A DNA stretch of 64,000 nt. It comes from Escherichia coli (lineage in GTDB: Bacteria; Pseudomonadota; Gammaproteobacteria; Enterobacterales; Enterobacteriaceae). Each line of letters opens with the position of its first letter. Position 1 is the stretch's first letter. The notes beneath the pieces were generated by a model. That model ran no database searches, was not told the DNA's origin, and saw nothing but the letters and a program-made list of their open reading frames with translations. Of this stretch, positions 9,698 to 51,410 are shown one piece after another. The stretch lies in assembly GCF_030013595.1 (NCBI RefSeq), contig NZ_CP122768.1, one strand, 5' to 3'. Both the position numbers and the translations under genes were made by a program.

Positions 9698-12034
9698 ATG
9701 AAGCAAATTCGTCTGCTGGCGCAGTATTATGTTGACCTGATGATGAAGTTAGGTCTGGTGCGCTTCTCAATGTTGCTGGCGCTGGCCCTCGTCGTTCTTG
9801 CCATTGTGGTACAAATGGCGGTAACCATGGTGCTGCATGGTCAGGTCGAAAGCATTGATGTTATTCGTTCTATCTTCTTTGGTTTGCTGATTACGCCGTG
9901 GGCGGTCTACTTTCTATCGGTGGTCGTCGAGCAACTGGAGGAGTCACGGCAACGTCTGTCACGGCTGGTGCAAAAACTGGAGGAGATGCGCGAGCGCGAT
10001 TTGAGCCTCAACGTTCAGTTAAAAGATAATATTGCCCAGCTAAATCAGGAAATCGCCGTTCGTGAAAAAGCGGAAGCAGAACTGCAGGAAACCTTCGGCC
10101 AACTGAAAATTGAAATCAAAGAGCGCGAAGAGACACAAATTCAGCTCGAGCAGCAATCCTCATTCTTACGTTCCTTCCTTGATGCTTCACCCGACCTGGT
10201 TTTTTATCGTAACGAAGATAAAGAGTTTTCCGGCTGTAACCGCGCGATGGAGCTGCTGACCGGAAAAAGCGAAAAACAACTGGTTCACCTGAAACCTGCT
10301 GATGTTTACTCACCGGAAGCCGCTGCGAAAGTCATTGAAACCGATGAAAAAGTGTTCCGTCATAATGTGTCACTGACCTATGAGCAGTGGCTGGATTATC
10401 CCGACGGACGCAAAGCCTGCTTTGAAATCCGTAAAGTGCCGTACTACGACCGCGTGGGTAAACGTCACGGTTTGATGGGCTTTGGTCGCGACATTACCGA
10501 GCGTAAGCGGTATCAGGATGCACTTGAACGCGCCAGCCGCGACAAAACGACGTTTATTTCCACCATCAGTCACGAATTGCGTACACCGCTGAACGGTATC
10601 GTCGGCCTGAGCCGCATTCTGCTGGATACCGAACTCACCGCCGAGCAGGAAAAATATCTCAAAACCATCCATGTTTCGGCCGTCACGCTGGGGAATATCT
10701 TCAACGATATTATCGACATGGATAAGATGGAACGGCGTAAGGTCCAGCTTGATAATCAGCCGGTTGATTTCACCAGCTTCCTTGCCGATCTGGAAAATCT
10801 CTCCGCCTTGCAGGCGCAACAAAAAGGATTGCGCTTTAACCTGGAGCCTACGCTGCCATTACCGCATCAGGTCATTACCGACGGGACGCGTTTACGGCAG
10901 ATCCTGTGGAATCTCATCAGTAACGCCGTCAAATTCACCCAGCAAGGCCAGGTTACCGTGCGCGTGCGCTACGATGAAGGCGATATGCTGCATTTTGAAG
11001 TGGAAGACTCTGGTATCGGCATTCCGCAAGATGAGCTGGATAAAATCTTCGCCATGTATTACCAGGTGAAAGACAGTCATGGCGGTAAACCTGCCACTGG
11101 CACCGGTATTGGTCTGGCCGTTTCTCGTCGTCTGGCGAAAAATATGGGCGGCGATATTACGGTTACCAGCGAACAGGGCAAAGGTTCAACCTTTACGTTG
11201 ACGATCCACGCACCGTCGGTAGCAGAAGAGGTCGATGATGCGTTTGATGAAGACGATATGCCTTTACCGGCGCTGAATGTGCTGCTGGTGGAAGACATTG
11301 AACTGAACGTGATTGTTGCGCGTTCTGTGCTGGAAAAATTAGGTAACAGCGTTGATGTCGCCATGACCGGCAAGGCGGCGCTGGAGATGTTTAAACCGGG
11401 CGAATACGACCTGGTATTGCTGGATATTCAGTTGCCAGATATGACCGGGCTGGATATCTCTCGTGAACTGACGAAGCGTTATCCGCGCGAGGATTTACCG
11501 CCGCTGGTGGCCTTAACCGCTAACGTGCTGAAAGACAAACAAGAGTACCTCAATGCTGGAATGGATGATGTGCTGAGTAAGCCGCTTTCTGTTCCGGCGC
11601 TAACCGCGATGATCAAGAAATTCTGGGATACCCAGGATGATGAGGAAAGTACGGTGACGACAGAAGAGAACAGTAAATCAGAAGCATTGCTCGATATTCC
11701 CATGCTGGAACAGTATCTCGAACTTGTAGGACCGAAGCTGATCACCGACGGGTTAGCGGTGTTTGAGAAGATGATGCCGGGCTATGTCAGCGTGCTGGAG
11801 TCGAATCTGACGGCGCAGGATAAAAAAGGCATTGTTGAGGAAGGACATAAAATTAAAGGTGCGGCGGGGTCAGTGGGGTTACGCCATCTGCAACAGCTGG
11901 GTCAGCAAATTCAGTCTCCTGACCTTCCCGCCTGGGAAGATAACGTCGGTGAATGGATTGAAGAGATGAAAGAAGAGTGGCGTCACGACGTAGAAGTACT
12001 GAAAGCGTGGGTGGCAAAAGCCACTAAAAAATGA
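9698..12034 (+). CDS. arcB: Aerobic respiration control hybrid sensor histidine kinase ArcB
   Basis: 778-aa ORF with transmembrane N-terminus, PAS domain, H-box (SHELRTPLNG), receiver and HPt domains. Confidence 0.95.
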   Translation: MKQIRLLAQYYVDLMMKLGLVRFSMLLALALVVLAIVVQMAVTMVLHGQVESIDVIRSIFFGLLITPWAVYFLSVVVEQLEESRQRLSRLVQKLEEMRERDLSLNVQLKDNIAQLNQEIAVREKAEAELQETFGQLKIEIKEREETQIQLEQQSSFLRSFLDASPDLVFYRNEDKEFSGCNRAMELLTGKSEKQLVHLKPADVYSPEAAAKVIETDEKVFRHNVSLTYEQWLDYPDGRKACFEIRKVPYYDRVGKRHGLMGFGRDITERKRYQDALERASRDKTTFISTISHELRTPLNGIVGLSRILLDTELTAEQEKYLKTIHVSAVTLGNIFNDIIDMDKMERRKVQLDNQPVDFTSFLADLENLSALQAQQKGLRFNLEPTLPLPHQVITDGTRLRQILWNLISNAVKFTQQGQVTVRVRYDEGDMLHFEVEDSGIGIPQDELDKIFAMYYQVKDSHGGKPATGTGIGLAVSRRLAKNMGGDITVTSEQGKGSTFTLTIHAPSVAEEVDDAFDEDDMPLPALNVLLVEDIELNVIVARSVLEKLGNSVDVAMTGKAALEMFKPGEYDLVLLDIQLPDMTGLDISRELTKRYPREDLPPLVALTANVLKDKQEYLNAGMDDVLSKPLSVPALTAMIKKFWDTQDDEESTVTTEENSKSEALLDIPMLEQYLELVGPKLITDGLAVFEKMMPGYVSVLESNLTAQDKKGIVEEGHKIKGAAGSVGLRHLQQLGQQIQSPDLPAWEDNVGEWIEEMKEEWRHDVEVLKAWVAKATKK

Positions 12035-12146
12035 CCCCGGCTAGACCGGGGTGCGCGAATACTGCGCCAACACCAGGGAAATCTTGGCTGCGCCGTAAAT
12101 TATTATGATGAGTTACAAGGGCACAGCACTGTTTTTCAGGCCGCAC
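12026..12146 (-). ncRNA. arcZ: ArcZ small RNA (RyhA/SraH), convergent with arcB and overlapping its stop codon
   Basis: Minus-strand sequence from 12146 reads GTGCGGCCTGAAAAACAG…GGTGTTGGCGCAGTATTCGCGCACCCCGGTCTAGCCGGGGTCATTTTTT, matching the ArcZ sequence as I recall it, including the seed region and intrinsic terminator. Confidence 0.85.
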
Positions 12147-12263
12147 GCAGTTAAGATAGCAAAACTTAAATGATTTGTTACATGAATCAGTTAAATGTGT
12201 GATGCGTAGCATTTTTATTAAAAAAATTAATGTGTTTCAGTCAATTGCGAAAGGATGATCACA

Positions 12264-12917
12264 ATGAAGAAAATTGGCGTAATTCTGAGCGGATGCGGCG
12301 TCTATGACGGTTCTGAAATTCATGAAGCGGTGTTGACGTTGTTAGCTATTTCACGCAGCGGTGCGCAGGCGGTCTGCTTTGCACCGGATAAGCAGCAGGT
12401 TGATGTTATCAACCATTTAACGGGCGAAGCGATGACGGAAACGCGCAATGTGCTGATTGAAGCGGCACGAATAACGCGCGGTGAAATCCGTCCTCTGGCC
12501 CAGGCCGATGCCGCTGAACTGGATGCGTTGATTGTGCCGGGGGGTTTTGGCGCGGCGAAGAATTTAAGCAATTTTGCCAGTCTTGGTAGCGAATGCACCG
12601 TTGACCGTGAATTAAAGGCGCTGGCACAAGCGATGCATCAGGCCGGAAAACCGCTTGGTTTTATGTGTATTGCCCCGGCGATGCTGCCGAAAATTTTCGA
12701 TTTCCCGCTGCGTTTGTCCATCGGTACTGATATCGATACCGCAGAAGTGCTGGAAGAGATGGGCGCGGAGCATGTGCCGTGTCCTGTCGATGATATCGTG
12801 GTTGATGAAGACAATAAGATTGTCACCACCCCGGCATATATGCTGGCGCAGAACATTGCAGAAGCGGCGAGCGGCATTGATAAGCTGGTTTCCCGCGTGC
12901 TGGTCCTGGCGGAATGA
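12264..12917 (+). CDS. elbB: DJ-1/ThiJ-family glyoxalase ElbB
   Basis: Track ORF starts 12255; canonical 217-aa protein starts [16 protein letters not shown] (ATG 12264). Confidence 0.9.
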
Positions 12918-13642
12918 GTAAAAGCCGCTTAACGGTGTTTAGTTTCATTCGCCGTTTTCTTCTGCGGTTAATGGTTGTCCTCGCCGTTTTCTGGGGCGGG
13001 GGCATTGCGTTGTTTAGCGTTGCGCCTGTTCCTTTCTCTGCGGTAATGGTCGAGCGGCAAGTCAGCGCTTGGCTGCATGGCAATTTTCGTTACGTGGCAC
13101 ATTCTGACTGGGTCAACATGGATCAAATCTCGCCGTGGATGGGACTGGCGGTGATTGCCGCAGAAGATCAGAAGTTTCCTGAGCACTGGGGCTTTGATGT
13201 CGCTTCCATTGAGCAAGCCCTGGCGCACAACGAACGCAATGAAAACCGTATTCGCGGTGCGTCGACGATTTCTCAGCAGACAGCCAAAAATCTCTTTTTA
13301 TGGGATGGGCGCAGCTGGGTTCGAAAAGGGCTGGAAGCCGGATTAACGCTGGGGATAGAAACTGTCTGGAGCAAAAAGCGTATCCTGACGGTTTACCTGA
13401 ATATCGCCGAATTTGGCGACGGTGTGTTTGGCGTCGAAGCTGCGGCACAACGTTATTTCCACAAACCCGCGAGCAAACTTACCCGCTCGGAAGCTGCATT
13501 ACTGGCTGCTGTATTACCTAATCCACTTCGTTTCAAAGTCTCCGCGCCATCGGGCTACGTGCGTAGCCGTCAGGCGTGGATTTTACGGCAGATGTATCAG
13601 TTAGGCGGTGAGTCGTTTATGCAACAACACCAGCTGGATTAA
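12914..13642 (+). CDS. mtgA: Monofunctional biosynthetic peptidoglycan transglycosylase
   Basis: 242-aa ORF, GT51 transglycosylase motifs ([14 protein letters not shown]); start overlaps elbB stop (ATGA). Confidence 0.95.
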
Positions 13643-33616: not shown

Positions 33617-33735
33617 AATCTCGCGCTAACAACCTGGAATCGAGCCGTCATACTACGGCGCAACGCCCTATAAAGTAAACGATGACCCTTCGGGAACTTC
33701 AGGGTAAAATGACTATCAAAATGTGAATTGTAGCT

Positions 33736-33769
33736 GACCTGGGACCTGTACCCGGGTCGGTATTTTTTT
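33736..33769 (+). terminator. Intrinsic terminator in the greA leader (GraL-type attenuator)
   Basis: 8-bp stem GACCTGGG/CCCGGGTC (one U-G pair) followed by T7, about 95 bp upstream of greA; the greA leader is known to produce terminated GraL RNAs. Confidence 0.55.
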
Positions 33770-40420: not shown

Positions 40421-40507
40421 GCCGAGGTGGTGGAATTGGTAGACACGCTACCTTGAGGTGGTAGTGCCCAATAGGGCTTACGGGTTCAAGTCCCGTCCTC
40501 GGTACCA
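40421..40507 (+). tRNA. leuU: tRNA-Leu (anticodon GAG)
   Basis: 87-nt sequence GCCGAGGTGGTGGAATTGGTAGACACGCTACCTTGAGGTGGTAG…GTCCTCGGTACCA with class-II long variable arm and encoded CCA. Confidence 0.95.
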
Positions 40508-44289: not shown

Positions 44290-44366
<77 letters not shown>

Positions 44367-44487
44367 CTTTCCCTTAGAGTCCTTTTTCAAATATACTGTG
44401 AAGACTTCGGCCTTCGTAGTGGGATTTGAAAAAATCCTTCTGGAAAGTGCTCCAGACCGCAGTTGCGGTTATAGGGTTCAGTTATAT

Positions 44488-44513
44488 AAAGCCCCGATTT
44501 ATCGGGGTTTTTT
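44488..44513 (+). terminator. Intrinsic terminator/attenuator between metY and rimP
   Basis: AAAGCCCCGATTTATCGGGGTTTTTT; a second weaker hairpin plus T-run follows at 44535-44557. Confidence 0.7.
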
Positions 44514-44572
44514 GTTATCTGACTACAGAATAACTGGGCTTTAGGCCCTTTTTTTATGTCTTGGGGGTGGGC

Positions 44573-49252: not shown

Positions 49253-49326
49253 ATGCGGGATAAGGCGTTTACGCCGCATCCGGCATGGATTGCCTGATGC
49301 GACGCTGGCGCGTCTTATCAGGCCAA
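49253..49326. repeat. Pair of REP elements (BIME) between infB and rbfA
   Basis: GCGGGATAAGGCGTTTACGCCGCATCCGGCA and GCCTGATGCGACGCTGGCGCGTCTTATCAGGCC fit the enterobacterial REP palindromic unit. Confidence 0.8.
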
Positions 49327-50798: not shown

Positions 50799-51164
<366 letters not shown>

Positions 51165-51180: not shown

Positions 51181-51209
51181 AAAAGGGGGCCTGAGTGGCC
51201 CCTTTTTTC
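51181..51209 (+). terminator. rpsO intrinsic terminator
   Basis: GGGGGCC-TGAGT-GGCCCC hairpin followed by TTTTTT. Confidence 0.8.
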
Positions 51210-51410
51210 AAGCTGACGGCAGCAATTCACTGGAAACTAATGTATTGTTGCTATGAATGATCTTCCGTTGCAGAGGTTCGCGCGGCTAATGAGAGGCTTT
51301 ACCCACATTGGGCTGGGTTAGGGTTGTCATTAGTCGCGAGGATGCGCAGAAGATCGGGTATTAACACCAGTGCCGTAAGGTACTGTCTAAGAAAGAGAAA
51401 GGATATTACA

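Follow-up and report, generated by a model that had tools for sequence, protein, structure and literature searches.

The small RNA gene arcZ and its nine-nucleotide overlap with the 3' end of arcB in Escherichia coli: anatomy, conservation and possible bearing on reciprocal regulation

Within the window analysed here (the whole stretch of 64,000 nucleotides from Escherichia coli contig NZ_CP122768.1, RefSeq assembly GCF_030013595.1), the small RNA gene arcZ lies between arcB and elbB (Table 1). It is convergent with arcB and divergent from elbB, which begins with a start codon at 12264 and is co-directional with arcB. The convergence of arcZ and arcB had been proposed in a preliminary description of this DNA, made from the sequence alone, and the opposite strands of the two genes bear it out. 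The arcB reading frame ends AAA AAA TGA, the reverse complement of the ArcZ tail UCAUUUUUU, with the TGA occupying 12032-12034. Nearby, the genes mtgA and yrbL overlap by 4 nt. The preliminary description had also warned that the overlap is easily missed in a protein-only annotation, and rightly so, as the PGAP records of identical sequence list only arcB and elbB, unlike the MG1655 record, where an ncRNA feature for arcZ is annotated. This omission from the automated RefSeq annotation of E. coli is of practical importance, for edits or deletions at the arcB 3' end or within arcZ disturb both genes; one published study sidestepped this double disturbance by mutating the -10 box of arcZ only.

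Table 1. Features of the arcB-arcZ-elbB region, in window positions.
Feature	Position	Strand	Basis
arcB coding sequence, 778-aa sensor kinase	9698..12034	+	ORF list; RefSeq annotation of identical DNA
Nine-nucleotide overlap: ArcZ tail UCAUUUUUU (-) = arcB AAA AAA TGA, Lys-Lys-stop (+)	12026..12034	both	sequence
arcZ, primary 121-nt ArcZ / SraH / RyhA sRNA	12026..12146	-	MG1655 identity and RF00081
RNase E-processed 56-nt ArcZ, active form	12026..12081	-	position from literature; last 56 nt start at UUUCCCUGG
ArcZ intrinsic terminator stem-loop ACCCCGGU-CUA-GCCGGGGU	12034..12052	-	terminator scan and MFE fold
Invariant ArcZ core GGUGUUGGCGCAGUAUUCGCGCAC, seed and small hairpin	12051..12074	-	exact 24-mer scan
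arcZ extended -10 element TGCTATCTT, -15 to -7	12153..12161	-	by eye; near-invariant across 26 genera
Conserved upstream block TCACACATTTAACTGATTCATGTAACAA, -56 to -29, candidate regulator site	12175..12202	-	conservation
elbB coding sequence	12264..12917	+	RefSeq annotation mapped onto window; ORF list

That the minus strand at 12026-12146 encodes ArcZ, as the preliminary description had it, is borne out. The whole-window Rfam scan, set beforehand as the test of this assignment, returned a minus-strand match of 12039..12146 to the ArcZ family (RF00081) (120.8 bits; gathering score 66; E = 4e-27), spanning the full model from 1 to 106; since the model ends in the terminator loop, positions 12026-12038 fall outside it and the match leaves out the tail together with the terminator's 3' arm. 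In addition, 12146..12026 is identical end for end, at 121 of 121 positions, to the MG1655 ncRNA arcZ (b4450, NC_000913.3 3350577..3350697), and the annotated MG1655 arcB (3350689..3353025) overlaps that gene by the same 9 nt as in the window. Of the features by which ArcZ is recognised, the model score and strand, the synteny, the invariant core and a Rho-independent terminator with its U-tail are all present. The window copy and b4450 agree in sequence, position, strand, terminator and the neighbours arcB and elbB, with no substantive difference between them, and the 3' overlap with arcB agrees with the published description of ArcZ, which gives it as 'about ten bases'. The site is ArcZ itself and not a relative. 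Among 5426 complete E. coli genomes, 5416 contain the 801 nt around the arcZ site and 5416 contain arcZ (5395 of them at 99% identity or more). The gene, its position, the overlap of about ten bases and the feedback loop with arcB are all already known from the literature, and what is added here is minor: a survey of the overlap and of the Lys-Lys-stop ending of ArcB, the placement of the terminator stem outside the coding sequence, the trivial pairing energy of the overlap, and an arcB gene that appears to have no canonical terminator.

ArcZ has been described as an Hfq-dependent sRNA of 121 nt that is cut by RNase E to a 56-nt 3' form (2024 review), figures with which the species of roughly 120 and 55 nt named in the preliminary description agree. 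Its conserved core is reported to regulate many mRNAs in trans, rpoS and flhDC among them. The 24-nt core was found exactly in at least 120 species from four families of the Enterobacterales, where the 24-mer itself is invariant by construction, being the search pattern; in the alignment, the invariant block reaches past it to take in TTCCCTGGTG... and the four stem C's. The extended -10 element and the upstream block from -56 to -29 are likewise conserved, from Escherichia to Proteus and Erwinia, and much more strongly than the 5' half of ArcZ, which provides independent evidence for a separate, selected arcZ transcription unit. A scan for strict sigma-70 consensus sequences found no arcZ promoter, because its -35 element is poor. 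With regard to the upstream block as a candidate regulator site, mutation of the TCACA motif in Klebsiella pneumoniae, proposed there as a CRP site, has been reported to lower ArcZ. By eye, no canonical ArcA box (GTTA repeats 11 bp apart) was seen upstream of arcZ, the only GTTA repeats there being 13 bp apart, and published ArcA ChIP data give no site upstream of arcZ.

The ArcZ terminator found by the terminator scan is a stem from 12052 to 12034 on the minus strand with 8 pairs, 6 of them G-C, a loop of 3 and the tail CATTTTTTAG, and the same hairpin is present in the MFE fold; the minus strand at 12040..12026 reads CCGGGGTCATTTTTT. Across 83 distinct sequences, 99.5% of the cells in the stem are paired, compensatory changes occur at 3 inner stem pairs, and the observed pairing or covariation score was reached by none of 500 shuffles. 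In a published Term-seq data set the dominant 3' end is at MG1655 3350696 on the plus strand, corresponding to 12027 on the minus strand of the window and lying 8 nt inside arcB; the tables of that study class it both as arcZ-internal and as antisense with respect to arcB. The preliminary description had stated that the terminator covers the last codons and the TGA of arcB. This holds for the tail but not for the G/C stem (12035..12051), which is situated entirely past the stop codon; the overlap consists of the U-tail and the outermost closing A-U pair of the hairpin, so that of the stem only position 12034, the A of TGA, is inside arcB.

The distribution of this arrangement was surveyed by an exact scan with the 24-nt core, taking one genome per species, which yielded at least 120 loci in a sample that is biased to genomes with an exact core. 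The matches listed belong to the Enterobacteriaceae, the Yersiniaceae (Yersinia, Rahnella, Rouxiella), the Morganellaceae (Photorhabdus, Xenorhabdus, Proteus, Providencia, Morganella) and the Erwiniaceae (Erwinia, Pantoea, Mixta). Wherever there was enough flanking sequence, arcB converges directly on the ArcZ terminator (119 of 119 listed loci, by tblastn with the ArcB C-terminus). When the overlap is counted between the end of the first T-run and the stop codon's first base, its length is 9, 10 or 11 nt in 100 of the 119 listed species (about 84%), spanning the four families. In 17 of the 119 the overlap has been lost or reduced, with the ArcZ core identical, and among the matches listed these are mainly Pantoea, Mixta, Morganella, Pluralibacter and Chimaeribacter: eight listed species have 0-2 nt (2 nt in six, including Morganella and Pluralibacter, and 0-1 nt in two Pantoea), eight others, mostly Pantoea and Mixta, have gaps of 4 to 10 nt in place of an overlap, and in Chimaeribacter arcB and arcZ are 58 nt apart. 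In two further listed genomes (L027 and L102) the A-run is one base shorter and the arcB frame continues through the hairpin, which reflects either a homopolymer indel or a sequencing error. These figures agree with the 2024 review, according to which the overlap is usually about 10 bases and is absent in Pectobacterium carotovorum. The overlapping layout of arcB and arcZ is probably ancestral in the Enterobacterales.

The survey also bears on the C-terminus of ArcB. All 100 species with an overlap of 9-11 nt end ArcB in Lys-Lys-stop (AAA AAA TGA or TAA), codons that are the reverse complement of U(C/U)AUUUUUU. In species where the genes do not overlap the endings of ArcB vary while the tail of ArcZ is constant; the Lys-Lys-stop ending therefore looks like an imprint of the ArcZ terminator on the protein and not the other way round.

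A more difficult question is whether the overlap underlies the regulation that has been reported between the two genes. Secondary sources on the work of Mandin and Gottesman (2010) state that ArcB/ArcA represses arcZ under low oxygen, that arcB transcription or arcB mRNA lowers ArcZ, and that ArcZ in turn lowers arcB mRNA; the 2024 review describes the antisense role of the arcB mRNA as 'speculated'. The preliminary description had called the overlap the basis of this reciprocal regulation. A reciprocal effect has indeed been reported, but the overlap is not established as its basis, the mechanism being 'speculated' and the 9 nt contributing only some -5.0 kcal/mol. For comparison with the A/U-rich 9-nt duplex, to which that computed value belongs, a duplex of 27 nt extending through the hairpin would be worth about -27 kcal/mol net of opening both hairpins, and one of 55 nt extending through the core about -79 kcal/mol net (both computed). 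As the 9-nt duplex is weak, any mechanism based on RNA-RNA pairing would need an arcB 3' untranslated region that runs past the annotated gene. Taken by itself, the overlap of 9 nt probably does not account for the cis regulation that has been reported. In K. pneumoniae, moreover, ArcZ has been found to act in trans and independently of arcB, and is reported to be activated by CRP and not to be regulated by arcA/arcB.

Past the hairpin the arcB strand reads TGCGCGAATACTGCGCC, the complement of the invariant ArcZ core and not a U-tract, so that arcB itself would be without a canonical terminator. In the terminator scan no terminator-like site appeared on the plus strand between 11500 and 12700, and the only plus-strand T-runs between the arcB stop codon and elbB are at 12132-12136 and 12212-12216. 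A candidate formed by the mirror image of the ArcZ 5' stem-loop and the TTTTT at 12132-12136 was set aside as speculation, having a long loop and having failed the scan. The Term-seq tables list no 3' end on the arcB strand near the stop codon. From the sequence it is likely that the arcB transcript extends past the annotated gene. On the opposite strand, the Term-seq study places a region of Rho-dependent termination antisense to arcB at MG1655 3351461 (about 11262 in the window), where bicyclomycin raises the reads downstream of that position from 20 to 418 (p about 1e-68). A Rho region antisense to arcB indicates that transcripts on the arcZ strand reach into arcB, although the coordinate itself may be pulled by ArcZ reads within the 800-nt upstream counting window. 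With respect to pairing elsewhere, the ArcZ seed matches the 5' region of arcB no better than background, 81% of background windows doing as well, and the same holds for the body of the gene; in an Erwinia study a translational fusion to the 5' part of arcB did not respond to ArcZ. Together these two negative results fit an effect at the 3' end or in cis. Any real antisense effect, in turn, requires either read-through past the annotated ends or the collision of polymerases.

On this basis the following account is given. Transcription of arcZ starts at 12146 from the conserved extended -10 promoter and stops at the hairpin 12052-12034, with the U-tail reaching 12027 or 12026; according to the literature, RNase E then trims the transcript to the 56-nt 3' fragment, the invariant core of which engages in trans pairing with mRNAs that include rpoS and flhDC. 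The arcB frame runs into the tail of the ArcZ terminator, which would fix the Lys-Lys-stop ending of ArcB. Of the mutual repression, the trans part would consist of ArcB and phosphorylated ArcA acting on the arcZ promoter, for which the overlap is not needed, and the cis part would probably not arise from the 9 annotated nucleotides. Instead, polymerases arriving from arcB would have to pause or collide at the hairpin, or to continue through arcZ and make RNA complementary to ArcZ, and read-through on the arcZ strand would proceed antisense into arcB until stopped by Rho. We consider this account the best explanation overall, with a probability of roughly 0.9 for an arcZ whose identity, anatomy and conservation are as observed above and a cis mechanism that we infer. 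A more far-reaching reading is held to be less likely than not. According to this tentative picture, arcB would lack its own terminator in every species with ArcZ, the place of the U-tract being occupied by the core; every arcB transcript would either stall at the hairpin or read antisense through the seed, and transcripts from the arcZ strand would enter arcB until halted by Rho. The cis loop would then rest on unannotated read-through RNAs and not on the 9 nt, and Lys-Lys-stop would be an imprint of the U-tail.

It has to be considered whether the overlap is simply a by-product of tight gene packing without a regulatory role, in which case the loop would operate wholly in trans, with phosphorylated ArcA (and CRP) acting on the arcZ promoter and ArcZ affecting arcB mRNA indirectly. 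Such an origin would accommodate the small size of the overlap (just 9 A/U-rich nucleotides, -5 kcal/mol), its loss or reduction in 17 of the 119 listed species with an identical core and its reported absence in Pectobacterium carotovorum, as well as the arcB-independent, trans-acting ArcZ of K. pneumoniae that is not regulated by ArcAB; the 4-nt overlap of mtgA and yrbL, close by, suggests that convergent overlaps are common here. However, the secondary sources have arcB transcription or arcB mRNA itself lowering ArcZ, and ArcZ destabilising an 'antisense arcB mRNA', the ArcZ seed is without a notable match to the arcB 5' region, the arcB 5' translational fusion of the Erwinia study was unresponsive to ArcZ, and the overlap has been kept across four families. 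Gene packing as the entire explanation is thus regarded as unlikely. The conservation pattern also speaks to a different suggestion, namely that the site encodes a small protein instead of, or besides, the sRNA, in the form of a 62-aa ORF (12024..12212 on the minus strand) or a 40-codon frame starting from a GUG at ArcZ +1. The ORF is in the mechanically generated list, and the frame is open through all of ArcZ, but its ATG is 66 nt ahead of the point where transcription starts, the UAG stop would be completed only past the mapped 3' end, and an open frame of 40 codons would arise by chance in about 15% of cases; furthermore, it is the 5' half of ArcZ that is full of indels and substitutions between genera, whereas the non-coding core is invariant. 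The 62-aa ORF was rejected as a small protein on the ORF list and this conservation pattern, and a coding function of any such kind appears very improbable.

A closer competitor accepts an effect in cis but attributes it to transcriptional interference and not to RNA-RNA pairing: converging polymerases would pause at the common hairpin and collide, so that each promoter would cut the number of completed transcripts from the other. The hairpin is indeed common to both strands and is without a U-tract for arcB, and according to a published model hairpins at the ends of convergent genes trap polymerases, with head-on and trailing collisions driving termination (bioRxiv 10.1101/2022.10.23.513370); the literature, moreover, describes ArcZ as repressing 'arcB transcription'. 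Set against this, arcZ and arcB are unmentioned in that single-molecule and SEnd-seq study, and ArcZ is far more abundant than arcB mRNA, which means that an effect of collisions would be asymmetric. Interference as the whole of the cis effect is accordingly held to be doubtful, and the account preferred here includes pausing and collision at the hairpin as one fate of the arcB polymerases.

Two known systems invite comparison with the arrangement of arcZ and arcB. GadY is an Hfq-binding sRNA that lies opposite the 3' end of the mRNA for the regulator GadX, with proposed duplex-dependent effects on the stability of that mRNA. ArcZ resembles it in binding Hfq and in lying opposite the 3' end of a regulator mRNA, but whereas the overlap of GadY with the 3' untranslated region amounts to tens of nucleotides, that of ArcZ with the annotated arcB gene is just 9 nt long, and the main well-proven activity of ArcZ is exerted in trans by way of a seed situated away from the overlap. 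By itself, an annotated overlap of this length is too short for ArcZ and arcB to be classed as a cis-encoded 3'-end antisense pair. The second likeness is to the bidirectional terminators of convergent genes as mapped by SEnd-seq (bioRxiv 10.1101/2022.10.23.513370), where there is likewise one G/C hairpin at the junction of the converging units. In the canonical form of such a terminator the hairpin is set between an A-tract and a U-tract, whereas here the side that would serve the arcB strand is taken up by the G/C-rich ArcZ core; the plus strand continues beyond the hairpin with TGCGCGAATACTGCGCC, and no plus-strand site was found in the scan, which departs from the definition of a bidirectional intrinsic terminator. 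By sequence criteria, the ArcZ hairpin is a one-way terminator that serves arcZ.

Transcription antisense to arcB is suggested by published bicyclomycin data, which place a Rho-termination region on the arcZ strand within arcB, at MG1655 position 3351461 (+), corresponding to about 11262 (-) in the window, where the read count on the downstream side goes up from 20 to 418 when bicyclomycin is present. Read-through of the ArcZ terminator is possibly the source of this antisense RNA.

The extended -10 element of arcZ and the promoter block that lies upstream of it are conserved across the Enterobacterales to a degree much above that of the 5' half of ArcZ. The upstream block includes the motif TCACA, for which a CRP site has been proposed in K. 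pneumoniae, and E. coli ArcA ChIP has recorded no site in this promoter region. An ORF of 62 aa covers all of arcZ, in the same frame as the GUG at the ArcZ +1 position, and the first base of its UAG stop codon is the last U of ArcZ. It was rejected as a protein-coding gene, and the indels that the 5' half of ArcZ carries between genera speak for a chance ORF.

Positions of arcZ-associated features and of further Rfam matches in the window
Feature	Window position	Strand	Source
arcZ extended -10, TGCTATCTT	12153-12161	-	
arcZ upstream promoter block	12175-12202	-	
62-aa ORF	12024-12212	-	
SraG	51181-51352	-	Rfam
STnc490	56691-56814	+	Rfam
greA leader	33647-33768	+	Rfam
S15 leader	50837-50951	+	Rfam
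rimP leader	44455-44555	+	Rfam
naRNA4	49254-49324	+	Rfam
tRNA	44290-44363	+	Rfam
tRNA	40421-40504	+	Rfam

In two genomes, Pantoea sp. 1.19 (L027) and Serratia sp. M24T3 (L102), the A-run encoding Lys-Lys at the 3' end of arcB is one base shorter than in their relatives, and the arcB frame therefore stays open across the ArcZ hairpin, 23 nt further in the former and at least 65 nt further in the latter. The shorter run either reflects genuine slippage in the homopolymer or arose as an error in sequencing. On the other side of arcZ, the mechanical ORF of elbB begins at an ATG at 12255 (+) and encodes 220 aa, and the RefSeq annotation begins at the ATG at 12264 (+) and gives 217 aa; the Shine-Dalgarno sequence AAAGGA is better placed for the RefSeq start.

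A second convergent overlap adjoins arcB/arcZ, as the coding sequences of mtgA (+) and yrbL (-) share 4 nt (13639-13642). A published Term-seq 3' end lying antisense within mtgA, at MG1655 3349181 (+) or about 13542 (-) in the window, could be the end of the yrbL transcript.

The further Rfam matches, counted where they scored above the gathering score, fit the arcB-to-pnp region of the E. coli chromosome in reverse orientation.
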